Positions 6,762 through 31,008 of a stretch of DNA of 64,000 bases are shown piece after piece. How positions within the stretch are numbered: position 1 is the stretch's first letter; each line of letters starts with the position of its first letter. A program made the translations under genes and the position numbers. The stretch is from Convolutriloba macropyga (taxonomy: Eukaryota): assembly GCF_964194025.1 (NCBI RefSeq), contig NC_134475.1, positions 62,930,001-62,994,000 of the forward strand. Reading direction: 5' to 3'. Under the pieces are notes generated by a model. It was not told where the DNA came from. It saw only the letters and a program-made list of their open reading frames with translations, and made no database searches.

Positions 6762-8546
6762 TCAACAGTCGCCCATTTTCTCATGCAGAATTTTCTGCAT
6801 TCGCAGCTTTTCTTTCTTCAGCATTTCAGCCTGTGCGATCAGTTGAGTGTTCATTCTCTGTTGCTCGCAAGTTCTTTCTATCATTGCTTTATGATGTCTG
6901 TTAGACCTCCGCAGGTACAAACTGGTCCACGGCACAATGTTCTCAGGCGACAGGGGAAAATGTAGTGGCTTTACCTTATGTGGGTTATACAACCCGTTGT
7001 AAAATCTAGAACAATTTGACTGGATTGACAAATACTGCCATATTGACATGGTCTTTGAGAAAACAGCGTTTGAGATCCGCTCGCATTCATTGTTGCATAG
7101 AAAGTTCCCGAATGTTCTGGAATAAGCACTTTCAGCAAGGAAGATCAAAAAGGCTTCATTGAATTCAAACTGAGTAGGAAAACAACGTGTAAATTGCCAA
7201 ACAGCATCTAAGAACAACAAGAAGACTGGAGCCGCAACTTTTCTGGAATCTTTGGCTTTGTTTTGGACAAAGAGCGAGGACAGACGTTCTTCAAACGGAT
7301 GACCAGCCAAAACCCACTCACGATGAATGAGCTCCTGGAACCCTCGCATCCTCCGACATTCTGGGTCTGCGATAATTTGAGTCAACGAGGTACTACATAA
7401 CGTCGTATCCCTTCCCTCTAATCCATGAACAAGTACTGATGTGTATTCCTGATTAAGAATTTGGAACATCAAGCTCGCATGAATGATCAAACTCCTGACA
7501 TGGTCTAACCACTTTGAGCTCTCAATGGCAAGGAGATAACTTTCAACTGAGGAATGGTTCGCTTTCAGAGCCTTCATGAATTTGACCAGAGATTCCAACA
7601 TGTTGGACACGCGCTCCAGAGGTCGCTGAAAGTGATGGAATTTCGGTTTATAATCTTCAGATTCATAGCCCCCTCCGCGAACTTTGTCACTTGATGCATC
7701 CGCCTGTGATCTAGTATCAACAATATAGGAAACATTAATATTTTTGTTGTGCGGCGCTGATAATGCCAGAACATGGTAATCTTTCGGCGACGTTCGATTC
7801 ATGGAAGTCAGTAATGGTTGACTAGACCTGACTAAAGCCGTTTGTTTTGCTTCGTGAATAAAACAGACAACTGGGAACCTCCCACCCTCTCTAAACTTCG
7901 AAGACTGTACCAGGTCATCATCAGTAACTGTAACAGGAACTATAATTCTTTCGGGATAACTTTGGCAAACTCCGAAACCCTTGTTGACTTCTGAAATTCT
8001 AAACTGCATGTTTTGTGATCTTTTGTTCATTTTGTGCAACGTGCTCAGAAGGCTAAACATTTGCCACCCAGCACTGAAGTCATCTAAATTGGGAATTAAA
8101 GGATTATGATTCATATTAAAAGCAGGCATTAATTGAACTTGAGAACTTATTTTTTCCTTTCTAACTCTGATGAAAGATGCCACATTTGAACACTCCGAAC
8201 TCGTTTTGAAGGTAAACTTAAACGTGTAAAAATGCTTGCATACAAGCACTATGTGAGCATCAGGCGGTGTCAGAGACTCAATTAAGGAATCTATCAACTG
8301 ATAGTACAAAGTAAAGGGATCGTCAAAACAGTGATCCCGTTTCAGAATGCCCAGGACGTCGTGTCCACTTTTAGATACAGATCCACCCGAAAACTTTTTC
8401 ATATCAGTCACGCTGATGTACTGCATTTCAGTTGTTAAGGTTCCTTCAAATATCAGCGCCGGGGTGGTTCCACAAACTTCAACTCTAACATCCGGAACAT
8501 TTGGAGTCGCCTCCGGCTCAGCAATTATACAAAAATCAGAGGTCAT
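6762..8546 (-). CDS. MTMR9: Myotubularin-related protein 9-like (catalytically inactive myotubularin), single coding exon
   Basis: 594 aa from ATG 8546. Myotubularin motifs FRISEVNKGFGVCQSYP, SKFREGGRFPV, LVRSSQPL, LIHREWVLAGHPF, APVFLLFLDAVWQ and FEFNEAFL. The signature reads VLVHGLEGRDTT instead of the active VHCSDGWDRT, as in MTMR9. C-terminal coiled coil. TTTTCAG acceptor just upstream (AG 8555-8554). Confidence 0.85.
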   Translation of the reverse strand: MTSDFCIIAEPEATPNVPDVRVEVCGTTPALIFEGTLTTEMQYISVTDMKKFSGGSVSKSGHDVLGILKRDHCFDDPFTLYYQLIDSLIESLTPPDAHIVLVCKHFYTFKFTFKTSSECSNVASFIRVRKEKISSQVQLMPAFNMNHNPLIPNLDDFSAGWQMFSLLSTLHKMNKRSQNMQFRISEVNKGFGVCQSYPERIIVPVTVTDDDLVQSSKFREGGRFPVVCFIHEAKQTALVRSSQPLLTSMNRTSPKDYHVLALSAPHNKNINVSYIVDTRSQADASSDKVRGGGYESEDYKPKFHHFQRPLERVSNMLESLVKFMKALKANHSSVESYLLAIESSKWLDHVRSLIIHASLMFQILNQEYTSVLVHGLEGRDTTLCSTSLTQIIADPECRRMRGFQELIHREWVLAGHPFEERLSSLFVQNKAKDSRKVAAPVFLLFLDAVWQFTRCFPTQFEFNEAFLIFLAESAYSRTFGNFLCNNECERISNAVFSKTMSIWQYLSIQSNCSRFYNGLYNPHKVKPLHFPLSPENIVPWTSLYLRRSNRHHKAMIERTCEQQRMNTQLIAQAEMLKKEKLRMQKILHEKMGDC

Positions 8547-9737
8547 GATCAACCTGAAAAGATTATCTAATAAACATAAAACGACAAACGCCGGACGAAT
8601 TGCTCTCGAACGACTTGCGAGGCAAACAATTTAGAAGGTGGCATAGGCTAAAGAACTTTTATGATACAAAAATTCTGACTCGGTCGGGGTGCGAACTTGC
8701 TTCCTCTTGGATAAGAGTCGGCGACAGTTGCACTTCACTACACGGACTATGTACAATCTTGGCTCACAATCGCTTTATTATTTTAGCTACAGATTTTAAT
8801 TTCTGAATGCGCGCAATTAAAATCAGTCGAGATGTTTAGCGTGAAAGTCACTCAAGAAGTGAAATTGAAAGAATGTTCTAGCAGAAAACGCGCAAGAGAA
8901 AATTTTGCATAAGAATAGACACCCCCGTTACAATAATTGCTTCAGACTTCGTTTGAGAGCAATTAAAAACATTAGAGCAGTTAAAACGCAAAGGAAACAA
9001 GGCGACTTGGTAATGTGCAATTGCACATAAGGTTCCGACCCCGCTCATCCCCACAATTTTGGTATGATTGTCTACCAAATGAGGAACATAGAAAAACCCA
9101 AAAATTCAAGTATTTTTTTTGGTGAATGAACAAAAAGACAGCCTCCAAAGCAAATAACTCAGTGGTGGAGTGAAAAATGGTGCATTAGATTGATGAGATG
9201 TGCAAATAATCAGAAAGCGAGTCAAGACGAACAGTAATATCAAACAGCAACAACAACAACAACAACAACAGAAATTAATTACATCAAAAACTTCATGTCC
9301 GTTTTAAAAAACAAAACTTAATAACAAAGTCAAAATAGCGTCAGATAAAACTGATATTACACAAAATAACTTTCAATCCACCAGAAAAGATATGGGACTA
9401 CTCAATAAAAAAGGCTTGGTAGCAATTAAACGATAAGGAACAAAAACAGTAAAGTTGTAAAATTCGCTTAATTCGCTTAATAAAAACAATTAATTTCACA
9501 GTAATGAAAACCATTAGAAATCAACTAAAATATCTCTTAGATCTAACCTTACAAATTCTTCTATAGAAAGAATTAGGAACTGTCTGTATTCAATTTTTTA
9601 TGCGTTTACAAAAAGAACAACAAATAACAGAACAAAAAATCAATTGAAACTTGGCAGATAACGCATTCGAAACCATAAAGCCATACTATGGCCATCAAAA
9701 TATGTTCGATTACACATTCTGCGAGCACCGATAATGT

Positions 9738-10078
9738 ATTTTTAGGTATTTACCCATTTTTCTCGTTTTCTAGTTTTGTCACATTATCACGTTATTGACA
9801 GTTCGTATATTACAACATTGGTTTTCAAAATAAGGCACAATTGATATTATTAAAATCCTGGAAGATATAGATTATGATTTTAGCGGCTTCGACACTACTT
9901 TCTTGAAGAATTAGGTTACAGTGTCGAAGCCGCTAAAATCATAATCTATATCTTCCAGGATTTTAATAATATCAATTGTGCCTTATTTTGAAAACCAATG
10001 TTGTAATATACGAACTGTCAATAACGTGATAATGTGACAAAACTAGAAAACGAGAAAATTGGGCGAATACCTAAAAAT
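9738..10078. repeat. Long near-perfect inverted repeat (159-bp arms, 23-bp spacer); foldback/MITE-like
   Basis: 9738-9896 is the reverse complement of 9920-10078, with a few mismatches at the outer end. Confidence 0.9.
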
Positions 10079-12918: not shown

Positions 12919-13836
12919 TTAGAGATAGGCCTCAGACATACACCAAGGAGTAGAGGTAACATTACAGCTCAATTTCACATCAACCTGAATGTAGTTGTAA
13001 TTCTCAACTGATAAAGTAGTAATTCGGGGTAGAGAAGATAATTGCACGTCACGATACCCATAATGTCTGTCTCGTTTCCTTCTCGCAGACTCCAACCAGT
13101 TTTTGGAATCGCGACTACCTTTGGCGTTTGGAACACTGATATGTATAAAAGCGTTTTTTCTATTTAGCGGCAGCGACAACATAGATATATTTAGACCTTT
13201 TTCTGTAATTCGCAAACGAAATTCGTCATCTTCCAAACCCCAGCCCCAAAACTTATTTGAGAACCCGTTGGCTCTTTCGAAGTGCTCCCTGCGTATTAGC
13301 GTTACACCGCCAAAATAAGAGTCGAAATTGTAGAATGGGTGGTACTTAGGGGCAGTAAGATGTATTGGCCCAGAACTGTTCGGGTAAATATACTCTATTA
13401 GCGGACTATTGGGTAGCAAATCGATGTCGTGAAGAGCAAAATAGTCACAGTCGGGGTGTCCGTATAAGAATCCGACGTTGATCAGAGCTCCTCTGTTGAA
13501 CCTGTATCTATCAGCTTGGTTGATGATGTAAATTGAGTGACGTGTCAACTGATTGGAGAGAAATTCGCTCAGATACGGCACAAAAACGCTCAGCTGCGCC
13601 CATCTATCTCGATAAGGAACAACGACACATAGGTAATGCCTTGATTTTGGAATAGAAATTTTGGCATCTTTATTTTCAGAAATATATTTGCCCAAGTTTT
13701 CATCCTGGGGTGATGGGATGCTCATGAGCACAATAGGGTAGAGAATGATGAAAATTAAGCAGAACAGGACAGAGAATGTGAATATTATAGACACCAAGGG
13801 TGGCCTGTCAGAATAAGAATTGTACATAATTCTCAT
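12919..13836 (-). CDS. B4GALT7: Beta-1,4-galactosyltransferase 7 (xylosylprotein galactosyltransferase, GT7 family), single coding exon
   Basis: N-terminal type II TM segment, then VVVPYRDR, FNRGALINVGF, HDIDLLP (DxD), WGWGLEDDE and C-terminal C...TPWC. Start taken at the first in-frame ATG after a TTTTTAG acceptor. Confidence 0.9.
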   Translation of the reverse strand: MRIMYNSYSDRPPLVSIIFTFSVLFCLIFIILYPIVLMSIPSPQDENLGKYISENKDAKISIPKSRHYLCVVVPYRDRWAQLSVFVPYLSEFLSNQLTRHSIYIINQADRYRFNRGALINVGFLYGHPDCDYFALHDIDLLPNSPLIEYIYPNSSGPIHLTAPKYHPFYNFDSYFGGVTLIRREHFERANGFSNKFWGWGLEDDEFRLRITEKGLNISMLSLPLNRKNAFIHISVPNAKGSRDSKNWLESARRKRDRHYGYRDVQLSSLPRITTLSVENYNYIQVDVKLSCNVTSTPWCMSEAYL

Positions 13837-15765
13837 AAACTTGTTGTGTCCATCATTATACCTAAAAATAAGAGAATACAAAACCTCATGATGAAAACTT
13901 GTCGCAGGAGCTTTTAGCTATTTTCACTAAATTTACGTTGCAAACGTTTTCAAGGTCAAACTAGAAAAAAAATTATTCCCAGAGGCAAAATTTTTCAAAA
14001 TCTAGAAAATTTTATAAGGCGCATTTGCTCTTCTTGAGCGCTGGTATGACTGGTTGCTCAATTCATTTTCAATATCAATAAATTCCAGACCACTTCCAGA
14101 GCAGCAAAAAAAAACTAGGAAACTAGAAAACAACCCAAACATTGCTACAACACAAAAATTCAAACATGTTGTTGTAGCTGTCGCACAGAGCTGAAATTCG
14201 CAGGCAATTTTGGCGGGATACAGGCGCTTATTGCCGTTTTTATCTGGTACCCTATTTACGTTTTTATCATAGAGCAATGGAACAAAATCCAAACATCAAT
14301 TACAAAGCCCGTCTCAAAAAATTGAGTTTGAAAATCTCTAATGCGAAAGAATTGCTAAGATCAGCAGATAATAAAACAGCAAATAGTAAATAAAACACAG
14401 TTTCATTTCGATGCTTCGAATTGCTACATGACTGAGTTGATTTTGAAATTAAGCATTGAGCTCAGAAACCTCCATGCATTTAAATTTTTTCTTACCTACC
14501 ATTTACAGTTAACTGATTGAGTCGGTTGCAACTTTCTATTTTTTTAAAAACAAAAAACAGCATTGTAATAGACATTTAGCAGATATTCAACTGGTTTTCT
14601 AATACGAGTGCACGTTAAGTTTCAACAAAAGGCGCTTCTACTTCGTTGTCAATTGTAATCTTAGAACAACATGACTGTTGTCTTGCACTGCCATGCAAAT
14701 TAGAAGCAATGGAGGACAAAAGATAATTTTGAATTTTGATCAAACCAAAAAATTCTGAGCTCACTTAGATCTGAATGGTATTCTCAACCTTAAAAAAGTG
14801 TTTATGATGACGACTCTTTTTGTAGTTACTATTATATGCAATTTCTTAAAAACCAAGAGACAAATGCTGATAATCCTAATTTAATAACTTGAAAGGAATC
14901 TAGTTGAGCAATAAAAAATGGCAAATTAGAAACAAAGTCAGATTTACATTGGTAGCGAATTGAGCATTTTGGGCTCCAAAACTCTAACGTTAAACCTTTA
15001 ACCTTGAATTAAGGCTTTTCCAGCAGCTGCACCCCTCTAGGAGCTTCAAGGACTACTAGAGCTAATCTTGGCCCTGTAACACAACTTGATGCCCACTGGC
15101 CCTTACCTGTTTATACCATTTCGAAAGATCAAAGTCTATTGAAAAATTATGAAAACAAAAAAAATAGCAGGACAAATCCTGAAATACAATCCAGAAAATT
15201 GAATTCATAACTTAGAACTACTGTATCTGACCAGCAGAAGAATTGAACAATGCACGCCAAAAAGACAATATCACAACTTGAGAAACTACAAAAAATAAAC
15301 AAAGTATCACTGCTAAAACTCTTGAAGCATTAACCCTGAAGGCCAAATTTATTGAAATTTTATAAAATTCGATCTTTTAATATGCTCAAAGTCATTTTTG
15401 TCTCTTGAATCTCTCAAAAAATTAATATGGAAGACCTAAAACAGTTTCATTAGCCCTCAAAGAGCGAGAAACTCAGAAAATGACAAAAGTTTTAAAGAAA
15501 AATGGAAGCAAGTTTTCTAACTCTAAAATTTGTGATATTATTACATTCAGACCAATTGAAAAACCTCTAAAAACTATTCGATAACCGAATTCCACCCCTT
15601 ACAAATCTTTGTTGACCTATAAAGATCGTGAAGAGGGAACATGAAAAATTATTTTCAGAAAAATTACATCAAAAAAGTGCAAGAAGTCGTATTATTAAAA
15701 CGTTGTAAACATTCCTTTGTCCCTAGCAATTATTCTGTAAACTAACATCATACCCTAGACGTGGT

Positions 15766-16330
15766 TATCATGTGCTCAAATAATTAGTATTCGCTAGTGG
15801 TTGTTCATTTTGGTTGAAAGCAATTCTAGTTGATCAAATTGATTTGTTTACTCGAGTAAACTCTTTCAAATAACAACTTTTCTGGCAAGAACGAATACGT
15901 TGCTGAATTAACGATGGTTGTTCACAGCATTACAGCTTTAACAATTTAGCGAACGAAAATTGTGCTGAGCACCTATTACAATTTAACGATTTTTCTGTTA
16001 TTATTCACTATTGGATAGCTTTAGCGGTTTGGATCTTCGAATGGGTGAGTCGACAATCTTTTTCGACAACTGAAGATCTCCTCTGGTAAAAACTTTATTT
16101 CAGTAATACAACTGTTTATTAGCGAGCAACTATTTTGTCTGTTACAATTTTAATATCTTGTTATTTACATTCGAATATAGGCAAGTATTAAACAGATTTT
16201 TCCAAAGTTGATTGGAATTCAGTAGTAAAGTTCAATTATGTAATAATGTGAACAAAATGATGGCATAATAAGAGTTAGTTAAATAACAGTAAAAGGTCAA
16301 CGTTTGAACTTGGGTTTGAGCTACGTCATA
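15766..16330 (-). repeat. 3' LTR (565 bp)
   Basis: Direct repeat of 28699-29261; I counted about 4 substitutions and one 2-bp indel. Confidence 0.96.
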
Positions 16331-16340
16331 CTCCCCTCCT
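16331..16340 (-). promoter_or_regulatory. Polypurine tract
   Basis: Minus strand AGGAGGGGAG directly abuts the 3' LTR. Confidence 0.85.
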
Positions 16341-16650
16341 CAGGGAGACTTCCGGGCTCGAAAAACTTCGATATCCATCATTCAGCGACGAAGCTCAAAT
16401 CCGTAAAAGAGTAGAAGTTTGCCACAGTTCCATACCAGTTAGAAAGGATACATGCGAGTAGAAAAGAATAAATGATCGTCCAACAATAGTACCATTTGAT
16501 AAGATCAGAAGAAATTGCTCCACTCCAACCGAATAATAGTTAATGAAAAAGTGATCTGTCGCAGTATAGGAGGAACTATTGGTCTGCTGCAAGGGTATTC
16601 TTCTTCAGTTTGGTAGTGCACATTATACTTTACAATACAACTGCACTAAT

Positions 16651-18946
16651 TCAGAGATCAGTTTCAATGCGCTGAGAACAAGTTTGTGAGAGACATGGGT
16701 CTGAATTTGTTTCTACGGTTTTGTTCAACGTAGATAATGATGTGCGTGAGCGAGATTTACTTCTCGGTCTAGTGGCTTCAGTCAGAATGTGATAGTTGTC
16801 TTTCCATTTTTGTGGAATGGCATCAGCAGCAATGTTGTCCTTCACACTAATGACTGGTTTGACACCAATGTCGTCATTTTTTGGTTGAGGAATGATGGAA
16901 CAAATTTACGAATGATCTTAAATCTTTGATAAAGATAGAGAAACAAAATGTGTAAAATGATGTTCCCAATGAAAACAATAACTGTAAGCGACAAAGACAA
17001 TTTTAATGGGACGTATTCTTTGAATTCAGACACAAGTGTAGGCTTTAACGTTCTCATATCAGCAGTGATTGGTCTCGCAATCTGAACCAAGTCATCACTT
17101 GACTTTATTTTTGGGCTTCGAATCAGCTCTGCTCTCACTTTTCTCAGAAGCTCTACTCCCGCTGTTGTTCGAGACTCGAAGTAGGGCATCTGATCGATTT
17201 GTGGAATTTCGCTCATCAAATGCTCCAAGGGGTCTGGTAGCTTAACTTCGATAAGTTTCGCTTCAACTCGGTCGCAGCTCTCGAGATCGGATCGAATCTT
17301 CAAATTTTCTCCAACAATTATTTGATAGTTGCATTCGACTGTTATAATGCATATCTTGCATCCCGGAATTATTCTGTTCCATGACTTATGTACAGAATCA
17401 TGACTGTACTCACGCATTTCATAAGAATCTGAAGCCGAAGTGATTAGCCAAATGCCGTATCCTAAATTGGCAGCATTCGCTTGCGTAGGAAGGTAAAATA
17501 CTTCCGTGTCGCAAGTCTCCGCTGCTTTTAGGGTCGAACTAACGAAGAGGGTTGTCAGGCAAGAAGGATGATTCGTTTGGGTAGCGATAGTCTCATGGCA
17601 TATTCGGTATCTAGCTGATCCTAGACATGCCTCAACTGATCTTTTGAAAGTGTTACCGATTCCATTTGATCCTCTGATATGGCAAGATAGGGCGCTTCTA
17701 TGACCCATCGGATTGCCATACGAGGTTCTGGCTGTGGCATCGGAACTATTTGCGCCTGGTACGTAGAAAAAACAGTTTGTCGCGAAGCCAACGGAATGGC
17801 AAGTGTAAGAACTAGTCCTTCATCCAAAGTCACGACATCTCGAAGAAGTTTTGCGTCATAATATGATAATAAATCTGTTGGGGGTATGGCTAACGACAAT
17901 CTGCTACCACCTAAAGACTGGTCAGCAGCGACAGATTTCAGTATATCAAGTAGAGATTCCTTGGGTACCAAGGACATTGGTAAATGTTGTTGTAGTAAAG
18001 TTGGGATGGCATTTAGGACATTCATGCGATACGTGTAGAGAGCTGTTCTATAGCTTTTGACGTCCGTATAGAGCATTGAGAGAAGAGAGGCTGCTGTGTC
18101 GAAGTTGAAATTGAGCTGTTGGTTCGAGAACAGCATTTGGGTGCAGTCTCGTAGAATGTGGAAGTTGCCCTCGAAAACTTTAAATTGCTCCTCGATGATA
18201 GCCCAATTTTTATTCTGTGTCTCTATCATCTAGTTTTGTGTCTCTCTAATCTCTTTCAATTCATTCCCAACTAAGAAAAACTTTTCATCAGTTGCAGTTT
18301 TTATCTGCATTACGTAGTCCGTCAGTGATGAAGTGAAACTGTATAGTCGATCAATATTAGCTGCATTCTCTTTAGCTCTGTCTTGGCATGATCTAAAAAT
18401 GCCAGAGAGACCGCATCCGCCTCCATTTCCCATGAGGACACCAGAACCAAAGAGCCCTATTCCAGCCATAGCAGCGACTGCGACATGTGCTCCTCGTTCA
18501 ACTCGGTTGTTTGTTCCTCTGATTTCATCACTGTTGTGGAGAAAGGTTGAAGTTTCGTTTCGAATGAGTTGAACATCCAGACTCGACTTATTGACTTCTT
18601 TCTCTATCTTTGACATGATCCAATTAACATTGAAAGATGAGGCAATTCCATTAAAACTAGATGAGAAATCAAGTGGGCAGTGGATAGATGGTAATTTCCA
18701 CATGTCACTAAGGCGTTTGAGTAATGTATTCAACTCTGGTTTTAAGGAAAAGTTGTACGATGGATATGGAACCATGAATTGAACTGGTACGAACTTTTCG
18801 GCCAGCAGAACTTTCGTTTCTTCGTTGAAAAATATTCCTTTTTCGAGTACATCATCAAAGTTGCAATCTTCTGCTGTTTGAGCGGTACGAATACAGAATA
18901 AGATGAAATTAAGCATTATAGTGGCAAACTTCATCCTTCTAAACAT
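16651..18946 (-). pseudogene. env: env-like class I fusion glycoprotein, disrupted (stop at 18230-18232; frameshifts near 17640 and 16860)
   Basis: Signal peptide MKFATIMLNFILFCIRTAQT; RVER cleavage-like site followed by hydrophobic fusion peptide GAHVAVAAMAGIGLFGSGVLMG; heptad region; Cys-rich ectodomain; TM LSLSLTVIVFIGNIILHILFLYLY; Ser/Arg-rich tail in a shifted frame. Confidence 0.85.
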
Positions 18947-19423
18947 GAGAATAATTATGAGTTTGTTTCAGGAATGGAGTTTTATGGCAACTGTTACAGG
19001 TTTTAGTATGAGAACAAATATACGCATGTTTGTAAAACATTATTTTCAGTAAACAGTACCGCCTGTGGCATTAGGTGTAGGAACTTTTAGGTGAGAGTCA
19101 TGTATATTTGTAGTATAACAAATTCAGTTTAAATCCGTATCGCCGACTGTGGCGTTAGGTGTAAAAAACTACTTTGTTAGTTTGCTCTTTAATTTTGACA
19201 GTTCACAACTCAGTGCTCGGTTGTGAGTGGTGGAGGGACGTTACTTTTAATTGCGATAGTGTAATTGTTTTCTATTTTGCTTTTTATCAGGTGATAGTAC
19301 AATAACTTGCTTCTTATGCTCAATTGTTGCAAAATTATGTGTGAGCCTCAATGCGTCGTAGTTTTTTGCCAAGGTTTCTGTTTCCAAAGTGTCAAAAAGG
19401 TGAAAATCTATTTCAGAGACGAA

Positions 19424-20760
19424 ATGGATAGAACCCTTATGTTGAGAAGTAAAAACTTTATCAAAAATGGCAATAAACTAGGAAAGGAGGCTGCCTTGAC
19501 TTCGCAAGTGGACCGCGATTGTTGGGCGAAGCGGTTCAAGCGCTCTTATTTAAACAGTGAAGGCGAGTTACAGAGTGGTGGGAAAAAAGTTGCAACCGTT
19601 AAGAGCGTTGCGGAAGTGCTCGATGTTGCACATGTGAAGAACGGCATTCACCATGACCAGATAAAACCAATGGTGACGGCCTTAACAGCGGCAGGTCCAT
19701 TTCTTCCACCTTACACCGGAGGCCTTGAACAAGCAGTAAAAGAGTAAGTTTGTTGTGCTCCCTTGCTTTTTAGTGGCAACTAGGTTAGGCGATTACTAAA
19801 ATGCGGTGTCTGATGTTTGTAGATATAAACGATCTTGTCCAACTTGTTACAAGTATAATCATCGATACGATAAGTTCCTTGTGACGAGTTTGAGCACACG
19901 ACGGCGACAAGACCTTTGTACCGCACTAGATTCAGAATGGACGGCAAATCTTAGCGGGCACACAACGGATCCCGTTGTACTGGGAACGCCGGATCTAGGT
20001 GTAAAGACAACAAAACTGGCCGATGAGTACGGCCTATGTATGTTTGCCAGTGTTTACTATTTGCTAACTGGCGAGATATCAAGTAAGAACAGTCTCTCAA
20101 CTATTGTTTGACATCTTTGTGTGTTCCTATCGATCTCTTTTGTTTTTTGTTCTTAGAAACGAACGGTAAAGAAATGAAGAAAGCGAAGTGCTTTCGCTTG
20201 CGCCAAGCAAGTGGGCACAAAGTCATGCAAAATTTCAAGGCTTTCGAAGAATTGTGCCTTCATTGGCTTGATTATCAGATCAATCCGTTCGAAATTCACG
20301 ATTCAATGAACGGCACGGGACCTGTGGGAGACCACTGGGTAATTGTTTAACTCAAACTTTCACAAAATTGCTTGGTCTAGTTTTTTATCTTGGTCTCATT
20401 TAGTATTTGGCGTTGGCATATCTGATGGATGTAGACATCTGCGTCTACTTCGACTATGGCAACGATGATTCGGTCTGGGTCAGATACCATCATAGTCTAG
20501 ATTCACAGAACAACCACTCAGCCTTGCTTCTAGTGAACAAGCACATACCAGGGAGAGGGTATCACTGCGAACCTTTAATTGATGTGCCAAATGCCGAGTT
20601 AGTAAAAAATTCATCTTTTTCCATCTTTTTTTTTGAAAATCAACGTTTTTTTTTCATCTCTTTTTTTGTTTTTAGCGTTGACAATGAGTTCGATTCTCGC
20701 CTAGTAAATGGCGAAATAGTTCCTCGAGCTGCAAAAAGGCTGCGGACCGATAAAGACTAA
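19424..20760 (+). CDS. Spliced antisense accessory gene inside the provirus: integrase-type H2C2 zinc finger + OTU-like cysteine protease, 346 aa
   Basis: Exons 19424-19743, 19823-20082, 20157-20338, 20404-20597 and 20676-20760 (1041 nt). GT-AG introns of 79, 74, 65 and 78 bp, all phase-compatible. Motifs AHVKNGIHH...VKEYKRSCPTC, DEYGLCMFASVYYLLTG, LRQ, ALAYLMDVDICVY and GYHCEPL; basic tail KRLR. An extra upstream exon is possible (tttcag at 19411-19416). Confidence 0.8.
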
Positions 20761-21068
20761 AAACTGGTTTAAACTTTTCAGAACTCATAAAAATTTCATT
20801 GTTGGCATTCATTTATTTCCAAGCAGTTGAGTAAAGAAATGTTTGAAACTCATTGGAAATTTGCGGTTACTGTAGTGTTTGACCGTAGTTATGAAATCTG
20901 ATATTAATTATTTCAAATATTGTCTTTTTTTTAAAAAAAATTGTTATTTTTGTCATTTTCATGCAAAATCCGCCGTCTGGGGTAGGTTTGGAAAAAAATG
21001 TCAAAAGTTTGCAAAAAGAGCATTTCCAATAAGTCAGAGATGACCAGAAAGGATGTTTGTCCCCCCTT

Positions 21069-24000
21069 TTAGGGGTCTGGAACCAATTTTTGAAATAGAA
21101 AATTGACATTTTTGATTTTTTTTTTAAGTTTGGTTACCTTAATTTTTTCGAAGTTTCTTGAAGTAAGAAAACAAGACGTCCATATGAAAAGTGCACCAAT
21201 CGAAGCAACGAATGTGTTGCACTGTTTCGCACTTTCTTTTTCTACTGGAAAACTTTTTTTTAATATGAAAATGTGTAATTCAATTTGTAAGGAAGCCAAT
21301 TTTTGCAAAATAATTTTGCAAACATGAGGCCAATGCAGTCCTGCAGAATAGTCAGATTGCTGTATAGCAAGTTTTTTGATGTTTTTGTCTTTTATCTGAT
21401 GTTTCAAAGTAGATAAACATGCTGCTAGAGATGGGTAACTTGTTCGTTCGAATGCTGAATTTTTGGTTATCAAATTGAACACAGTCCGGTTTTTGATGTT
21501 GTCAAAAACAGAAATAACAGATCCTATTGAACACTGACTTGTTAGGTGATAAAGGTTGATGTGGTTTAAATTAATATTCATTTGCTTTAACTTCTCTAAT
21601 AAATTATCAATAGATGTAGTTTGGACTACAGTGTCATCAAATTGTTCAATAGTTGATTTGTGATAAAAAACTCTCAGATGACTTGCTTGTATATTACTAA
21701 TATTACTGGAATTGGTTTGTTCTGTGGCTTTTCTGATTCTAGATCTGCAACCAACAGCTAGTTTTGCTATTGGTGAAACTTCCTTTGATGACGTTGTTCT
21801 AGGAGTTGAAGTACTGGGTCCAGGTGCTTCAGTTTCACCTAATTGTTGATTTTTCACTTCTTCGCTTCTTTTGATGTTAAGTTTTGTCGCTCTTGATTCA
21901 GCTGCATCAGGATTTTTGACTAGACGTTCCATGTTTTTTCTATACGACTGCTTAATATTACTTTGTTTTTCCGACTTTTTTAAATGCGAATGTGGAATCA
22001 ACATCTTCCCGTCTATTGTACGAATCATGTGCGGGTGATCTTTAGAAGCAGGTGGTGGAGAACGTGTTCCTTTTTTGAATTGTACTTTTCGTGATTGAGT
22101 CTTTAATTGTCTTTCTTTGTCTTCAAATAAATTGCGTCCTGCTTCACGCTTAATTGTTATTGGTGTTTCTGTTTGCTCGTACTCATCGGACTGTGACTCC
22201 TCTTGCGTATTGGCGGGCTCTGTCGTGGTTTGCTGTGGCTCTCTGTCTGCGTTTTGTCCGTTGAACTGTTCAAATTGTTCAGTTTCACTTTCATTATTTA
22301 GTTCTGGGAAAAATGGAAGTTCAGCAAAGTTGTCTACGACTTCGTCATTTTCTTCTATTGGAATGTTGGCCATCTGCTCTCCTTGTAGGTTGCCCGCGTC
22401 TTCTGCCGGCTGAAAAGGCTGAGCAGGGACATGGGGAACTATTGGAGCTACAGCAGGTGCAGGCAGTGCTCCTGCTGCGGCTATTGGGAAAGAGAGTGTG
22501 ACTGTTGCAGGTTGTTGCTCTGTTTGATCTTCTTGATTTTCTTGTGGCACGTCGTCAATAAAGTGGTGTTCAAGCACTTTTGGAATTTGTTCATCGAACA
22601 ATTCTGGTTCTTGTCTGTTTTTTCCCAAAAGAGGATCAGGAACGAATTTGTCCGGATCAATGTCATCAAGATCTGATGGCTTCACGTTTGGTGTATAGGG
22701 TCTAAGTCTTATACGGTGTACACATTGTGTGAACAAAGTGCCAACCTTCCGAATCAGGTAGTTTGAATTTGTGAGTACTCTCTCAATTCGATACAACGGC
22801 AGCCAAACAGTCATTGATTTATATCCAAAGTCAGATTGATTCATGAGCTTTGGGTTAAGTAGCAGGCAAAACGAATAAAGTGCTAGAAGGCTTGAAAGTG
22901 CTTTTTCGTCATAGTATGTTCGATACTTGTGATAAGCGTGTATTAATTTTGACTTATTCTCGGAGAATTTTTGCTGCATAGCATCTTGCAATTGGATAAC
23001 AAAGTCAGATTTTGGATCAAGATTTTTCAAATTTTTATTATTGAACCTCACATCCAAGGGTTTAATCGGTTCACGACCGTGAAAAATTGATGTGGGTGTG
23101 CAACCTATTGACGAAAAATATGAGGTATTATGAATGTAGGTTGCTAGAGGCACATTTGTGCCAGTTGGACCATTGTTCATTCGTATTGAGTTTAAGAATT
23201 CTTTTCAGCGCTCCGTGTGCTCTCTCAACAACACCTACAGATTGCGCGTGCTTAAGTGTGGCGTGTTTAAGCTTTACTTCAAGCAATTGTGCTAACTCGT
23301 GCATTAGATCGGATACGAAACTACTGCCTAAGTCTGACAAAAATGTATGTGGTATATAACTGTGTTGGAAAAATATTGATGTGAGCTCTTGTGCTACTCT
23401 TTGTGCGCTTACATTAGTGAGTGGTACAGCAAAAAGGTTTTTCGAAAAAACATCAATACCAGTCAAAGCATACTTATAAACAGTTCCACGAAGTGGACCG
23501 ACTAGGTCGATTTGAAGCATGTCCCCGGGAAAAGACTGTAGTGATGATAAGCGTTGCAAAAATGTTTTTAGCACTTTATTGGAAATGAGTTTTGTCTGTA
23601 TACATGTTAAGCAATTTTTGACAGCATTTAGAAGATATTATGTAAATCCAGGAAAATAAAATCTTTTTCTGAACTCAAAGGCAGTTCTAACTACTCTTAT
23701 GTGTCCAGCAATTTTCGAATTCTGCAATCTATAGATTACCTCTTTCCAAAGGTGTTTAGGCAGGCAGTACTGGTTGTACAGAACTTTGCCAGTGTCATAA
23801 AAAAACTGTCGATACAGAACATCATTTTCAATTGTTAGTCTATTGAATTGCTTAGCGTATTTTTTGAGTGCGAATGATGCGTACTTGATATCCTCAACAG
23901 TGTTATTTTGTTTCCAAAAGATAACACGCTTGATAACTTCATCTAATGACTGCTCATGTTTAAGGTCGATAGGATTCAAGCGTTCAGTCAATTCGTGCAA

Positions 24001-26900
24001 AAAATCGGCAGGATCATGCATCAAAACTGCATTGAGTTCTGGAATTTTCGGTTTCAAACGAATGAAAGTTTGTATTTCAGCGTCGTCGGTTTTTGAACTT
24101 TGCTCCTCAATTTGTCTGAATATTCCATCTGGTATTCCAGATTGCTTCAACTTATCAAGCATTTCAATGCTGACGTTTGCTTTTTGTTCAAGTAAACACT
24201 CGATATTTGCCAATGAACTGAGTGATACGTCAAGCGTTTTGGCTGTTGATTCAATTTCTATCTCTCTAATTGGCATTCTATCCGTCAACTTTAGTTTCAT
24301 TGTTTGCGATGGGTCAGTTTGCGACCTCGAAAGGAAATCGGCAGCGTAATTTTCACTGCCAGGAATGTGAGCGATAACAAGGTTGTATGACAAAACACGG
24401 TCAAGAAAATTCCATAGCGACGGCGGAATACTTTTTGCTTGGAAAAATTGGGTTAAACTTTTGTTGTCAGTAAGGACTATTACAGCTTTTTCCGTACCCC
24501 AAAGATAATGAGAAAAATGCTCAAGGGCAAAATAAAGTGCAAGAAATTCCTTATAGTAGACTGAGAATTTAAGCTGAGCGTTATTAAACAGTTTTGAACC
24601 AAACGCCACTGGCGCATAAGTTTTTCTGTTCTCATTTTTGTTGTTTTTAACATAATCCTCAATCATCAGTACAAAACCGGTGCCAAAATAACTGGCATCG
24701 CAGAGTAGAACATACTGCAATCCTGGTTTAGCTAATCTTAACGTTAAATCGGTTGCTTTTACAAGATCGGCTTTGACTATTTCAAGATGTTTTTCGTGTT
24801 CCTCTGTTAAGACAGGTTCAATATCCTTTCTCCGTAGCTTGTAGAAGGGCATGAGTTTATCTCCCAAGTTGGGTATAAAATCACGCCAAAACTGGACAAA
24901 ACCTACTAGACGCTTTACCTGTTTTGGTGTTCGGGGTAACTTGATTGTTTTGAGAAACTTTTCGATTCTTTTTGATTCTGGTTGTATACCTTCTGTTGTT
25001 ATAATTTTTCCAAGAAACTTGACTTTTTGCGTGGCAAATGTACATTTATTTGGTGAAAGTTTAAGACCTGATGTTCTTATGCATTCAAAAATTTTTCTGA
25101 GACTTGGAATCAACTCATCAAATTTTTTTTTACTGCGCTTCCTATGTCATCCATATACTGAGTGCAGATGTTTGCTGCAAGACAAGAATCTAAATAGTGC
25201 CTGATAAATGAACTGATTCCTGTTACGGACTTGCTTAGACCTTGTGCTAAACACTTGTATGCATGTGCGAGAGGAAAAATTAAAGGCTAAAAGTTGGACT
25301 GAAAGATCATCCGCCATTTGAACACAGTGGTATGCCTGCGAACAATCAAGTTTTGTAAATAAGGATTTTCCTGCAAAGTGATTTGAAGCATCGCTCATGT
25401 TTGAGATTGGAAAATTACTATTGATATAGTCATTTCTTAACAGATGATTGATACGCCTTAAGTCAATAAGAATTCTCAGTTTGCCAGAATCTTTGCGTTG
25501 CGCAAATATTGGACTACTGTACTTTGAATGTGATAAGGTCGTGATCAAATTATAGTAGTGCATCAATGCAAGTTCTACTGTGAGCTCATCTCTCAGGTGT
25601 ATTGGCGTTTGTGGACTTTGAACATAAACAGGAAGGTTATGCTCAGGTGTGAGTTTGATCTTTAACTCTGTGTTATAACCTACATCGAAACGGTGTTTAG
25701 CAAATATATCAGAAAATTCCACTAGTAACTTTTCTACCTGACATTTTTGCTCAAAGGTTAAAACAGAATTTTGCCAATCGAACTTTTCAAGAATAAGGTC
25801 ACGATCTTTTGCGTTATTCTTGAGGTCAATTTTATCAAGATTTTGAAAGTGCAGAATTTGATCATAAATATCACGCTGCAAAGGAGACAATTTGCTGGGA
25901 TTGTCACAGGTTTCAGGGCTCGGAAACCAAAGTTTTTCATATTCTGGTTTTGGTCTGGTTTGGTTCAGAGGCTGAAAGTTTTTTGTTTGAACAAGTTGAT
26001 TAATTTCAGCTTCCAAGTTTTCGTGGCTTTTCATTTTTGCCAAAGCAATAAGCTGGGGGTCTACATTAACTAGCCTTTCTGTTTGTTTTTCATTCAAAAT
26101 TTCAAAAAAGGCGACTTTTGAATCAACACATAGGGTTATTTTGTGGTCAGTAATATTAAGTGCTGAAATGAAAACAACTTTTTTCATCTAATGTGCTCAA
26201 GGATGATGTTAGAGCTATTTCCGTTTCGTTTTCAAACTGAGCGCAAGGTATTATTACTCCACTGCAATTTTCTAAATTAGGAAAGCTCTTGTCGAGACAA
26301 CATTCAAGCAATTGATGTGAGTTGGGCTGTAGTTCGTGTTTTTTACTCAGTAATAGGGGAATTTTCTTCAATTTTTTAGATGTTTGCCTCTTTTTATCTT
26401 TTGGCTTTATTTCATTAAGTTGTATTGTCATTTCAGGTAATTTCAGTAAATTATAAGCGGGACTAATGTCGATAAAATTTTTCTTGAAGAAAGGGTTTCC
26501 TAAACTGACGGTATTCATTGTTGGAAGAACTAAAAAACTATCACTGAAATGATGATTGCCAATTGTGAATTTTACTTTGATTTGCTGTTTTACTACAACT
26601 GGGGCACTTGAAGCTAACTTAACAGTGTTATAAGTGGGTGATTCTACCTCAAAACAAATTTGTTTTTTCTCGAAATCATTTAATAAGGATAATGGGATAG
26701 CGTTTGAGCAAGATCCTGAGTCAATTAAAGCTCTTCGGCGGAGACTATTATCAAATTTTATTCTAACATAGGAGAGTTTCTCCTTCTAGAGGGATTACTG
26801 CGCAAATATTATCCTCAATCTGCATGTCTGGGTCTAGTGAAGTATTTGCATGTAAAGATGGATTTGATGAGCTGGTATCTAATGGAACTTGTGGCTTATC
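21069..26900 (-). pseudogene. pol: pol (protease-RT-RNase H-integrase-macrodomain), several frameshifts/stops
   Basis: PR ALIDSGS (~26720); RT LRILIDLRRIN, KLDCSQAYH and QYMDD (~25150); RNase H LCDASY, KEFLAL, TDNKSL and ADFLSR; IN zinc region GH...CLTC; core IDLVGPL, SDLGSSF and VVERAH. Confidence 0.93.
21258..21680 (-). other. TARG1/OARD1-like macrodomain at the integrase C-terminus
   Basis: NRTVFNLITKNSAFERTSYPSLAACLSTLK...NIKKLAI...GLHWPHVCKII...IELHIFIL parallels the C-terminal two-thirds of OARD1 (RYIYYLITK...PTYENL...SL...L.W..V..MI...I.VY.L). The N-terminal GDLF and GAGIA loops are not recognisable. Confidence 0.7.
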
Positions 26901-28128
26901 TAGTTTTTTGAAGACCGTTGGAACGGAAAATTTGTTCCACCTCTGCGTCCACGTGATCGCATTGAGCAATTAGTTGCCAAATGATTTGGATAACCGCAGA
27001 TATGGCAAATGATTTGGGAATATTGAGTAACAGGAACATGTGTTTCCTCAATTGGTTGAAAAACTTGAACAACTGGTTGCTCATTACTTGCTGTTTGTTG
27101 TTCTTGGATCGGTTGAAAGTTTTGCGGCGTTGTCCCCGCAAACTGTGGAGCATTAGGAGTATATTGGAAATTATTTTGAGCAGGGAATGAGAACTGGTTG
27201 TTGAAGTTATTGAAACCTCTGTATCCTCTCGATCTGCCATAGCCTCGAAAATTTCCTCGACTTCGGTAGTTTGAGTTGTTATATGAACCATTTGTCCACG
27301 GTTTGAGCCTCTAAAACCATTTCCCCGAAACTGATTTCCAAAATTCTGACTTTGTGAAAATTTTTGCTCATCGAAACGTTTATTTTGCTCCTCGACTTGC
27401 TTACTTAAAGCGCTCATTCTATTTTCCATAGATTCCTGCGTTTGGCTAAGTTTTGATAAAGCATTTATCAAATTATCTGAAATTGTTGGACTCACTTCGT
27501 TAAAAGCTCCGTCAATATAGTCCTCTTTTTTGCAAAGATCGTGGATGGTCAGTTGCTTCCTAGCTAAGAGGCATAAATCCTCAACTGTTGTGTTGTCTGG
27601 TTGTTCCAACAACTTTGCTCTAAGCCAGCTAGGCATACATTTTTTGAAAAAGCGCTTCGTCTGATTTTGTCTCTCTTGTTGTGCAAAACGTAAATTCTCA
27701 TCATTTCTAGCATCTACGGCATCTTGAGCCACCTGATCCGCTCCGGGTGGATACGCCTCGGGTATGGGATCAGGATAAGCTTTCAAAGTCATATTTTGCA
27801 AGGACACAAGAAAGTTTTCTGGTGAATCAGTTTTTGGGTCGAAACGAACGTTTTCTAACTTGATTACATGCAACTCTTGCAACTGTGGGTTGCAGAAATG
27901 GTTTCTTAACGCCGTTAAACTTAGGGCTAAATCATTGCATGTCGCTTCTGGTAAAGTCTGGAAATATCTCAGAGCTGCATCTCTCAGATGCAATTGCAAA
28001 AAGTTAGCCTGTTGGGCTCCTGCTACTGCTGCAACTCCTATAATGCTTCTTAAAAGATGCTCGAACTCTCGAAAACTTTCTTTATATGTACCGCTGAACG
28101 GTTTTAAGGCAATGTTAGGTTGTGCCAT
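26896..28128 (-). pseudogene. gag: gag with CCHC zinc knuckle (frameshift near 27290)
   Basis: Capsid-like N-terminus LKPFSG...FREFE...LHLRDAALRYF; the shifted frame encodes CHICGYPNHLATNC (~27010-26965) and ends SKN*. Confidence 0.88.
26903..26909 (-). promoter_or_regulatory. Putative -1 ribosomal frameshift heptamer A-AAA-AAC at the gag/pol junction
   Basis: Minus strand tcA AAA AAC tag immediately before the gag stop codon. Confidence 0.7.
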
Positions 28129-28680
28129 TTTATGTGCTCTAAGTTTAAATGTTTAAGCTTTGTAGTGTAGTTGAGTTGGTTGAACAGTGGTTCAACTTGC
28201 CGAGGAATTAAGAATTTTTGGTGTAGTCTCTTGGCTTGATGGCCTTAGACTTATTTAGAATTAAGATTAGAGTAAATGTAAAAGTTTCGAGCTTGACTAT
28301 TTCTGATAATTATATTTCCTTTCTGTGATCAATGTTTCAAATCAGTTTTCATGATTCAAATCAACAGAATGATATCAGGAACAGATTGTGGTGTGGCGTC
28401 ATTATAAAAGCACTGTATTAATTCACTGCACAAAAGGTGAAATCTAACGAACCCTTGTAGTCACTATGTTGTTGCGTCTGCCTATCAGCGTCAGCTCTGG
28501 CCACAGGGATATTGGTCACATGAAATCACAATTCCACCAAGCTGCAGTTCTCACTGTACTGATTTGAAACTGTACTGATTTGGATGGATACCGCTCGTGG
28601 TTCTGTTTTAGCCCTTCAATTCCGAAGTTGACAGTGGTGAGGATCTTCTCGAAGGTATTGGCTCACTATCCTGTCGATTG

Positions 28681-28698
28681 TCGTCCGTTCTGTCACCA
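28681..28698 (-). promoter_or_regulatory. Primer binding site
   Basis: TGGTGACAGAACGG directly follows the 5' LTR; the priming tRNA is uncertain (Leu-like at best). Confidence 0.75.
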
Positions 28699-29261
28699 TA
28701 TCATGTGCTCAAATAATTAGTATTTGCTAGTGGTTGTTCATTTTGGTGGAAAGCAATTCTAGTTGATCAAATTGATTTGTTTACTCGAGTAAACTCTTTC
28801 AAATAACAACTTTTCTGGCAAGAACGAATACGTTGCTGAATTAACGATGGTTGTTCACAGCATTACAGCTTTAACAATTTAGCGAACGAAAATTGTGCTG
28901 AGCACCTATTACAATTTAACGATTTTTCTGTTATTATTCACTATTGGATAGCTTTAGCGGTTTGGATCTTCGAATGGGTGAGTCGACAATCTTTTTCGAC
29001 AACTGAAGATCTCCTCTGGTAAAAACTTTATTTCAGTAATACAACTGTTTATTAGCGAGCAACTATTTTGTCTGTTACAATTTTAATATCTTGTTATTTA
29101 CATTCGAATATAGGCAAATATTACAGATTTTTCCAAAGTTGATTGGAATTCAGTAGTAAAGTTCAATTATGTAATAATGTGAACAAAATGATGGCATAAT
29201 AAGAGTTAGTTCAATAACAGTAAAAGGTCAACGTTTGAACTTGGGTTTGAGCTACGTCATA
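28699..29261 (-). repeat. 5' LTR (563 bp)
   Basis: Direct repeat of 15766-16330. Confidence 0.96.
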
Positions 29262-29564
29262 GTGGTTCCCTGGCACCCGAGGAACAAAAACTCAAAAAAC
29301 GACAAAAACTTGACACTTGCAAATTTTAAGGCTAATAAAAAACTGCTAAATTATAGTGATATTAAAAAGTTGGAAACAACTCTACTGCCACTATAAAGTA
29401 TAAACTATACACTATTATAAGACCCTAGAGCGGGTTTTCTGGTCCCTCAGGGTGGAAACTCGAAAATACAAATTTAAAAACTGATCTGTTTATCACGTTT
29501 TGAAAGAGGGCTTTACCTGTTTATCACGTTTTGAAAGAGGAAAGTCATTGAAAAATTGTGAAAA

Positions 29565-29900
29565 CATCTTACAAAAAAACGTACCAGGACAAGTCCTGGC
29601 ATATAATTCAAAGAATTTCCATTGATTAAACAAAAAACTAGACCTAGAACGGACTATGACCTGATTGCAAAAACCATTTAGAAAAAAATGCCATCAAAAA
29701 ATAGAAACAGTAAGTCAAAGCAAAAATGCCGCATGTGAATTCACGCCGCAAAACCACTCGCTTTTTCGCTCCACTTCCTGTTTCGGCGTGTTTCGCTTCG
29801 ATTTGACTTCAAAAATCATGAAAATATGTGAATGGATCTTAAAATACAGCGCCCCAATAAAATTCAAATTCTTTGAATTTAAAAATATACAGAGCCCCAC
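29565..29900 (+). repeat. Dispersed non-coding repeat family; related copies at ~32760-33310 and ~36220-36370
   Basis: Shared blocks caggacaag(t/c)cctg, aaaactagacctagaacgg, tttcgctccacttcc, tttgacttca and cagcgccccaata. Confidence 0.75.
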
Positions 29901-30249
29901 CACAATCCAATTCTTGGATCGTAAAAAACCTGTAGAATGCAAACGCTCCTCTTCAAGTCGAAAAAAGACCACAGGACTAATCTAATATCAAACTTTGACT
30001 GCAAATTAGAAAAACGCAAATTTATCTGCTTCATGCTGGTTGAATCTACGAATAGGATTGATCTTAAGATCAATCAACATGTACCCAGACTTGTAAAAAT
30101 GCTTTACCTTTAATTGTATAACATAACTTAACGGCTGCCTGAGATACCTATAACTAAGGCTCGGTTCTATTCATTAACAGCTTTAACATAAAATTTAAAT
30201 TTAACGAGCACATAAATTTCCCCCAAGATAAAACAGATATAGCTATAGT

Positions 30250-31008
30250 TTATCGGCCAACTTGACCCAAAGACTGATCCGTTTTCGGATTCGCAGTAAT
30301 TGCTTGGGCAGCAACAATTGTCTCATTAATTTGGGTCTGAAGCTTTCGAAGTTCATTAATGTGGAGTAAACGCAACACTTTAGCTGCATCTTTCACTTGC
30401 TGATCATTAACTTTTAATCCAAGCTCAACATCTTTTAGTTGAACTGTAATTGCAGGTTCTCTATTAGTTGTAAATTCTTCAACCGCTTCTTCTCGGAGCC
30501 TCGCATCACAGAAAATTGCTAGAGCTTTTAATACATGAAGATGCTGTTCGTGTTGCATGACATTAACAATCTTGGCACTTTCCATAACGCCATTCACAAA
30601 CTCAGACGATGTTGGATCTAAACTGTTCAGAGCGTCAATAGCAGCCGCAGCTGCAGCTTTACCAGAAAAGGTTCCGCTAACAATATTTTCTTTAGTCATT
30701 GGGCGGTATTTATCAGCATTGTCGCCGTATTCATAACGAACAGCTAAGTTTAATAACCAATTAGTTAGTCGAGCTCTATCAGGCCTAACAACTTCAGGAC
30801 ATTCAAGGTCATTTAGGTAATTCGCAAATGCTGTTTCCCAATTTGTAGAAGAATAACTCCGCAATGCAGCTCGATCTTCCTCTTTATACCACCTAATTTT
30901 TTGATCTTCCAACCACACGATTAGCATTCGAAACTTGGCCTCGTCATTTGGGTCAAACGACTCCGTCACAACGTAGTCAAGAGCATCCAGTTTTGCCTTG
31001 AACTTCAT
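30250..31008 (-). CDS. RTRAF: RNA transcription, translation and transport factor (CGI-99/C14orf166, tRNA ligase complex subunit), single coding exon
   Basis: FKAKLDALDY, IVWLEDQKIRWY, WLLNLAVRYEYGD and LRLLHINELRKLQTQINETIVAAQAITANPKTDQSLGQVGR. ATG 31008 follows a TTTTCAG acceptor. Confidence 0.93.
   Translation of the reverse strand: MKFKAKLDALDYVVTESFDPNDEAKFRMLIVWLEDQKIRWYKEEDRAALRSYSSTNWETAFANYLNDLECPEVVRPDRARLTNWLLNLAVRYEYGDNADKYRPMTKENIVSGTFSGKAAAAAAIDALNSLDPTSSEFVNGVMESAKIVNVMQHEQHLHVLKALAIFCDARLREEAVEEFTTNREPAITVQLKDVELGLKVNDQQVKDAAKVLRLLHINELRKLQTQINETIVAAQAITANPKTDQSLGQVGR

Follow-up and report, generated by a model that had tools for sequence, protein, structure and literature searches.

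We describe here an intron-containing gene that lies antisense to the genes of an LTR provirus of the Ty3/gypsy type, in a slot between pol and env, within a stretch of 64,000 nucleotides of the Convolutriloba macropyga genome (referred to below as the window). The gene is a fixed component of many element families and not a one-off insertion. As judged from sequence identities, the slot is exchangeable, and near-identical element backbones hold different versions of the gene. From these comparisons and from structural models, we propose with moderate confidence that a lineage of env-bearing Ty3/gypsy elements carries a spliced accessory gene for counter-silencing enzymes, which would keep the provirus out of silent chromatin.

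A sequence-only reading of the window had described the gene as an open frame of 346 aa in five exons and four introns, antisense to the element and between pol and env. Its coordinates, GT-AG ends and phases were all reproduced here, as was its placement, with the gene on the plus strand and the surrounding element on the minus strand (Table 1). The joined frame (346 aa plus stop) contains no internal stops. The four introns, of 79, 74, 65 and 78 nt, are 21-42% G+C and 39-58% T in composition, and the exons are 45-46% G+C. The motifs first noticed in the protein are present at H70 and H76 (H..H), C112 and C115 (CxxC), C179 (20037-20039), H308 (20563-20565) and residue 339 (KRLR); we take the basic KRLR motif of exon 5 to be NLS-like. 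Four sequencing runs behaved as whole-genome DNA, and their contigs read through the introns.

Table 1. Features of the provirus and of its antisense gene (window coordinates)
Feature	Position	Strand	Remarks
Target-site duplication GTGGT	15761..15765; second copy 29262-29266		
3' LTR	15766..16330	-	ends TAT...ATA, not TG...CA
Polypurine tract	16331..16341	-	precedes 3' LTR
env-like gene	16842..18967	-	three reading-frame pieces
Two copies of 16-nt core motif	19063..19162		candidate internal promoter element
Exchangeable cassette	19167..21603		antisense gene and integrase macrodomain end
Exon 1	19424..19743	+	integrase-like N-terminal extension; two His (H70, H76) of putative HHCC zinc module
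Intron 1	19744..19822	+	GT-AG, phase 2; phase retained in diverged families
Exon 2	19823..20082	+	zinc-module CxxC, linker, OTU N-terminal extension, putative catalytic Cys loop (C179)
Intron 2	20083..20156	+	GT-AG, phase 1
Exon 3	20157..20338	+	predicted helical region of OTU
Intron 3	20339..20403	+	GT-AG, phase 0, directly 3' of Trp codon
Exon 4	20404..20597	+	predicted OTU strands, His loop (H308, E310)
Intron 4	20598..20675	+	GT-AG, phase 2
Exon 5	20676..20760	+	conserved tail, basic NLS-like motif, stop
pol	21069..26785	-	protease, RT, RNase H, integrase, long tail; spread over several frames here
Macrodomain, TARG1/OARD1-like	21255..21680	-	end of integrase; diverged in window family
gag-like ORF	26896..28152	-	assigned by position; no Pfam match
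Candidate primer-binding site	28680..28698	-	begins TGG, abuts 5' LTR
5' LTR	28699..29261	-	99% identical to 3' LTR

The surrounding element is 13.5 kb long and has the features of a Ty3/gypsy element: paired LTRs (99% identical), a 5-bp target duplication, a candidate primer-binding site, a polypurine tract, RT and RNase H of the gypsy type, and the gypsy order of Pfam domains (protease, RT, RNase H, zinc finger, integrase core). The best solved relative of pol was Ty3 Gag-Pol (E 9e-18). The env-like ORF, which has a signal-like start, a basic cleavage site with a hydrophobic peptide and a C-terminal hydrophobic segment, gave no informative match in Pfam or PDB; its anatomy is that of a putative envelope fusion protein. 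The pol-env gap measures about 2100 nt; within it, about 300 bp separate the end of the antisense gene from the pol stop, which is on the other strand, and 480 bp separate the divergent starts of the antisense gene and env. The 16-nt core motif found twice upstream of the gene occurs also in a related locus, L066, and partly in another, L010, and is absent from six other loci examined; no 9-mer was common to more than four of the eight env-proximal intergenic regions.

Several other observations were made in the window. An extremely high-depth dispersed repeat at 29500-29960 adjoins the 5' LTR; related sequences occur at 15100-15200, 32750-33300 and 35100-36370. Host-type genes in long single frames were recognized with Pfam at 6762-8630 (myotubularin), 12919-13917 (galactosyltransferase) and 30250-31086 (RLL/RTRAF). 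The region from 50900 to 61000 is A+T-rich; long ORFs are numerous there on either strand, and it contains tandem repeats that look coding. Elsewhere, 1086 bp are directly duplicated at 47421/48507, and a hairpin of 159 nt is found at 9738-10078.

We searched the 1.18-Gb genome for relatives of the gene. The whole gene region gave nine full-length matches at 95-100% identity, the window copy included, and one partial match at 85%; exon 4 alone gave at least 131 matches among 150 candidates scored. Of 21 diverged exon-4 loci, 19 had the pol tail downstream and in opposite orientation, and of 10 exon-1 loci, 9 had env upstream; six more distant loci all had pol, env or both once their flanks were added. 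A splice search in which no phases were imposed returned phases 2, 1, 0 and 2 in 14 of 26 modelled loci, which span six families with 25-54% amino-acid identity in the protein, and the other 12 had stops, frameshifts or no full model. Intron 3 lay in phase 0 after a TGG codon in 23 of the 26. The gene model of L062 is doubtful at its last exon, and alignment rows were left out for stop codons or wrong frame at L031 (exon 4), L038 and L021 (exon 2) and L049 (exon 1). The presumptive catalytic Cys and His are invariant in all six families, and dN/dS relative to the window copy was 0.25-0.60 in 8 of 8 pairs (most distant pair, dS 0.40 and dN 0.10), these pairs having one shared reference and thus not being independent of each other.

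The gene is found in most copies, is conserved and is antisense to gag-pol, as is characteristic of antisense accessory ORFs. Sibling copies, conserved position and purifying selection bear out the original proposal of a retroelement accessory gene. It had been suggested that genomic copies and related families be aligned, with dN/dS below 1 expected at a shared position, and this is what we observed. Because position, phases and dN/dS are kept across families, the opposite possibility, a one-off nested insertion bounded by terminal inverted repeats and missing from siblings, is refuted: siblings keep the gene, and no inverted repeats of 40 nt or more were listed around it among 25 of 26 pairs. 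The initial caution that 1 kb of intact frame is not significant by itself, and might be due to chance, is answered by the phases and dN/dS across families.

The state of individual copies speaks against the reading proposed here. Eight close insertions that arose independently were compared: frameshifts are present in three, and in three (L002, L007 and L008) either the catalytic Cys or the catalytic His has been replaced by a change private to that copy. With 60 private changes distributed over 346 sites, 0.35 catalytic hits would be expected (Poisson P ~0.005, calculated post hoc). A cost of active copies to the host is one possible cause of this excess; chance is another. We also noted tandem duplications of the antisense gene or cassette in single loci (L036/L037/L059, L054/L056 and L005/L006); an 85%-identical subfamily copy, L010, in which an LTR is joined straight to mid-exon 4, with gag and pol missing; and, in the most numerous family (L062/L094, L063/L097), a non-coding stretch of 3-5 kb, repetitive within itself, that separates the gene from the end of pol.

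From profile comparisons and fold searches, we regard the OTU fold of the C-terminal half of the protein as established, as the sequence-only reading had supposed when it pointed to an OTU-like protease with candidate Cys and His. In hhalign comparisons, the gene-family profile matched seven OTU domains of the same genome (found with Pfam PF02338, six of them above cut-off) with a probability of 97.7 over 162 columns and with the catalytic Cys and His in register, and 30 column shuffles gave values of 0.35 or less. Exon 2 alone reached a probability of 95.5 against the Pfam-positive OTUs, and exon 4 alone reached 59.8 against OTUs. The OTU profile scored 28-33 bits in five of six family proteins and at most -0.7 in reversed ones. 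The candidate triad is C179, H308 and E310, the third residue being at His+2 and replaced by N in one family; the residue at Cys-3 differs from the usual Asp. Exons 1 and 4 were modelled separately. With the exon-4 model (pLDDT 87.3), Foldseek ranks 1-8 were all OTU-family proteases, each with E of at least 0.41 and none individually significant, and VIA ranks 1-3 were OTU (Z 3.1-3.8). OTUD1, OTUD3 and Otu2 were the first matches, and many of the top ones were viral OTU proteases. The ESM Atlas connected exon 4 to OTU-like clusters at 0.89, which we treat as a lead only. OTU domains are deubiquitinases, and several RNA viruses use them against host defence; we infer that the antisense protein is likewise a deubiquitinase.

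Scanned as single exons, the gene gave no match to Pfam OTU (PF02338), Integrase_H2C2 or any other informative family, in four exons and in 30 proteins, the OTU domain being spread over three exons; a PDB sequence search with the exon-2 and exon-4 profiles gave no match, nor did exon 4 searched among longer proteins. No spliced full-length homologue was present in protein collections, where the 6 and 26 matches obtained were single-exon or intron-read-through ORFs. One candidate homologue, P0022, was rejected as a repeat artefact. No relatives were found among viral contigs, and the sole weak match to a metagenome contig (L099) was discarded, since the exon profiles gave it no support. Two proteins from public assemblies, P0013 and P0006, have best matches in this genome of just 52% and 42%, respectively, and for this reason the gene family is probably present in other genomes as well.

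The N-terminal half gave a less definite result. The exon-1 model (pLDDT 78.9), compared with 48,161 chains, had foamy-virus integrase residues 8-90 as its top match (Z 5.5, rmsd 3.6, 76 aligned) and Ty3 integrase residues 26-125 as its second (Z 4.9, rmsd 4.2, 89 aligned), the next chain being at 3.9; these Z values are middling. A zinc-module profile, for which we had sought the ligand pattern H-x(3-7)-H-x(23-35)-C-x2-C, aligned with 13 gypsy zinc fingers with the four ligands in register and a probability of just 8.6, with shuffles reaching 2.0. The ESM Atlas returned no usable match for exon 1. Only ~25 residues separate the CxxC from the OTU extension, with no DDE core between them. The probable architecture of the protein is thus a fusion of an integrase N-terminal module with an OTU domain, the catalytic core being absent. 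The fold check proposed with the sequence-only reading was accordingly positive for the OTU domain (hhalign, and Foldseek with exon 4) and weaker for its H2C2-like zinc finger, for which the ligand register and the integrase folds speak and the profile match says little.

A further domain, a TARG1-like macrodomain, is attached to the end of the integrase encoded on the other strand. A profile of seven family members matched PDB 4j5r with an E of 3e-19, and the window sequence alone gave no macrodomain match; the domain is canonical-looking in the L062/L063 family (L097:244-786) and degenerate in the window family. Our literature search turned up no report of a macrodomain joined to the integrase of a gypsy LTR retrotransposon.

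Exchange of the slot was inferred from pairwise identities, and is seen most clearly in L066. This locus is 90-98% identical to the window element in env and pol, with an integrase core that is 94-100% identical, yet no blastn alignment was obtained across 19167-21603, where forced alignment gave 41-62% identity, although the sequences flanking this stretch on either side align at 91%. Its antisense gene is a different version, 22-45% identical by exon (22-26% in exon 1), and the macrodomain end was exchanged along with it. Approximately half of 18 long pol matches at 94% identity or more adjoin this second version, as judged by exon-4 identity, and L038 and L065 are 78% identical to each other in the macrodomain vs 39% in exon 4. 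Read depth over the cassette in the four DNA runs was about half that over pol and env; although no measure of copy number, this fits the presence of two cassette types.

An OTU exon was missing from the neighbourhood of twelve pol matches at ~70% identity. Among these, L100 has the usual arrangement of env, a small antisense ORF for a membrane protein, and pol tail, gave no match to the three exon profiles, and holds in its slot an antisense JmjC gene with a canonical phase-0 intron. The JmjC exon matched Pfam Cupin_8 (E 2.5e-6, above cut-off) and JmjC (E 0.0017); its nearest solved relatives were PHF8, PHF2 and KDM7A, at weak E values of 0.002-0.02, with which the H-x-D...H iron ligands and the 2-oxoglutarate Lys are aligned. 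This exon was present at all 12 such pol matches, in antisense position and 2.2-3.0 kb from the pol match. Among the 41 pol matches listed, 29 were paired with OTU, 12 with JmjC and none with neither, pairing being by coordinates, and L100 being the one locus read at sequence level. In a sister family, then, the slot holds a JmjC gene. Its product may be a histone demethylase, to which the matches are weak; hydroxylation of other substrates is the activity of many members of the JmjC class. The JmjC gene itself (L100:1976-2835, in G000:C1:55178300-55182299) has 103 genome matches, of which 12 are those beside the examined pol matches, and others include tandem arrays on C2, C11 and C15. Both in OTU families and in JmjC families, env is separated from the enzyme gene by a second small antisense ORF of ~95 aa (L100:1490-1783, L065:1092-1427, L022:97-327 and L057:737-847), which the window family lacks. 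This ORF has a signal-like start, a W..CC.NG motif and a hydrophobic end, and no informative match in Pfam.

How such a gene might persist and act can be outlined as follows. Introns antisense to the genomic RNA of a retroelement escape the spliceosome and survive reverse transcription: the packaged genomic RNA has the opposite sense, so that the introns go unseen by the spliceosome and are copied along with the remainder of the element. The gene must consequently be expressed from the integrated copy. Transcription would start from an internal promoter, probably in the 480 bp next to env, for which the duplicated 16-nt motif is a candidate. The predicted nuclear deubiquitinase would be brought to element DNA or chromatin by its integrase-derived DNA- and zinc-binding module and there would strip repressive ubiquitin from targets such as histone H2A or silencing factors, and the JmjC version would take off repressive methyl marks. 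The slot would thus be a counter-silencing module, turned over in an arms race with the host. The two types of cargo belong to enzyme classes that take modifications off proteins, each has a basic tail, and the nearest solved JmjC relatives are, if weakly, KDM7-like; the simplest purpose that the two could share would be to keep the provirus from silent chromatin. A more elaborate version, which we advance tentatively and hold to be somewhat short of probable, is that the elements maintain a modular antisense slot for spliced erasers of chromatin marks (an integrase-guided deubiquitinase or a histone demethylase) beside an ADP-ribose macrodomain fused to integrase, that the contents are swapped by recombination to escape silencing, and that fully active copies cost the host so much that dead catalytic sites are over-represented among the insertions still present.

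Other functions have to be weighed against counter-silencing. The protein could guard the replication machinery, its module docking on the intasome or particle and its OTU domain deubiquitinating integrase or Gag, in concert with the macrodomain. The resemblance of the N-terminal part to the integrase N-terminal extension and zinc domain, which in solved intasomes touch the catalytic core and viral DNA, agrees with such a role, as does the joint exchange of the macrodomain end and the gene in L066; ubiquitination of retroviral integrase, which has reportedly been reviewed (PMC3738961), we also count in its favor. However, the JmjC alternative in the same slot is left unexplained, and the near-identity of the L066 integrase core, at an exon-1 identity of 22-26%, is a poor fit with a co-evolved contact. 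We consider this explanation unlikely, while according it appreciable weight. We give rather little credence to self-restraint, that is, control of copy number by the lone integrase module as a dominant inhibitor or by antisense dsRNA, with the enzyme being secondary. The end of the gene near the pol stop and the complementarity of its RNA to genomic RNA are compatible with it, and a role of this kind for antisense ORFs is discussed in the accessible text of PMC7264820, but an RNA-only function requires neither the invariant catalytic residues of six families nor their low dN/dS, nor two different enzymes.

Much the same degree of doubt attaches to the idea that chromatin silencing is not the target and that the enzyme works, in cells entered by means of env, against innate antiviral signalling or against ubiquitin-dependent clearance, as pairs of OTU and macrodomain do in RNA viruses. 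The elements have env, a macrodomain and, in several families, the second small antisense membrane-protein ORF, and viral OTU proteases are prominent among the top fold matches; the roles of viral OTUs are reportedly treated in PMC3968130. Against this, a nuclear site of action is indicated by the NLS-like tail, by an N-terminus of the DNA-binding type and by the JmjC alternative, and an intron-containing gene would be expressed only after integration. As for a functionless fragment of a Ginger1 or Helitron transposon, inserted once, we find it highly improbable. Zinc finger, OTU domain and introns recall Ginger1, as described in the part of PMC2836005 available to us, and the OTU domain is akin to Helitron OTUs of this genome. 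Yet open frames, splice sites and catalytic residues are kept at 25-54% identity with dN/dS well below 1, there is no DDE core, and no inverted repeat of 40 nt or more surrounds the gene among 25 of 26 pairs listed; the flanks are pol and env in all families. Conserved position, phases, catalytic residues and dN/dS together contradict a functionless passenger.

The sequence-only reading had itself offered a captured or nested Ginger derivative as its alternative. As a one-off event this is not sustained, the gene being fixed in many families and its OTU domain being nearer to the Helitron type than to three Ginger1-like proteins: P0055, P0056 and P0059 matched in the Cys loop only, at 6-7 bits, whereas Helitron-type OTUs matched with the upstream extension included, at up to 20 bits. 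A Ginger1 donor was not detected in the genome, in that none of 68 scored P0056 matches (of 7262 candidates) reached the OTU domain. Remote Ginger1 ancestry may nevertheless apply.

If counter-silencing is the correct reading, these elements would encode an enzymatic anti-silencing system of retrotransposon origin. In a 2019 review, transposon-encoded anti-silencing mechanisms numbered only three, every one of them from plants, and the author or authors found it surprising that there were so few (PMC6719617, accessible portion). The two antisense genes alternating in one slot have recognizable, assayable folds whose predicted targets are both major classes of repressive histone mark, so that active erasure of host silencing by retrotransposons becomes testable with standard enzyme and reporter assays; they also show a route by which retroelements acquire whole multi-intron genes. 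Four features appear to be new: the enzyme cargo, the fusion to an integrase module, the location of the gene in the pol-env interval, and the alternation of OTU and JmjC in one slot. Antisense genes of the OTU or JmjC kind were not found for LTR elements in our literature search, the scope of which lay outside Repbase, subscription journals and supplements, nor in the portions available of PMC4402516, PMC2836005, PMC5408684, PMC7264820, PMC6431247, PMC12477816, PMC6338049, PMC13547354, PMC6719617 and PMC13524379. Surveys limited to short pol-env gaps or to sense ORFs would miss such genes: in the text of PMC13524379 open to us, a first filter allowed 1000 nt between pol and env, compared to about 2100 nt in the window element, and the words antisense, OTU and accessory do not occur there. 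The layout of gag, pol and env is otherwise that of metazoan env-carrying Ty3/gypsy elements such as Oikopleura Tor3b/4b, and in Tor4b env is expressed from an internal promoter after pol (PMC4402516, in part).

Among known systems, Ginger1 transposases, as far as PMC2836005 could be consulted, contain YPYY, H2C2, DDE, GPY/F and OTU domains and 1-4 introns, and the gene described here, with a putative integrase-type zinc finger and an OTU domain in one intron-containing unit, resembles a Ginger1 gene from which the middle has been removed. It differs in having neither the DDE core nor the GPY/F region and in replicating within an LTR element. Helitrons and Helentrons have the closest type of OTU that we found, N-terminal extension included, but there the domain is inside a Rep-helicase polyprotein, in contrast to the separate spliced gene with an integrase-like module observed here. 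OTU domains in animal Helentrons are noted in the accessible part of PMC6431247. In this genome, we observed OTU domains in open frames of ~2500 aa (G000 C4:51.2 Mb, C10:43.2-43.6 Mb and C2:35.7 Mb), which are probably Helitron polyproteins, their relatives having Helitron_like_N.

An intron-bearing antisense gene is not new per se, and brtn of the Boty element is reported to contain introns. The HBZ gene of HTLV-1, a vertebrate retrovirus, is spliced, lies opposite the viral genes and is driven from the 3' LTR. It is thus similar to the present gene in being a spliced gene on the opposite strand, as in deltaretroviruses generally, but encodes a regulatory bZIP protein. The HTLV antisense promoter is mentioned in the consulted part of PMC7264820. 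VANC of Arabidopsis VANDAL elements is, like the protein described here, a transposon-encoded accessory protein with a proposed anti-silencing function and is divergent between families; it belongs, however, to a plant DNA transposon and is non-enzymatic as described in the section of PMC6719617 available, as opposed to predicted enzymes in a retroelement. Boty brtn (Botrytis), maize Grande gene23, rice RIRE2 and Silene Retand likewise have a conserved extra antisense gene downstream of pol, that of Grande having its own promoter, and in the text of PMC7264820 accessible to us these ORFs lie between pol and the 3' LTR and are assigned no enzyme function. In contrast, the antisense gene described here lies between pol and env, has recognizable enzyme folds and is swappable.
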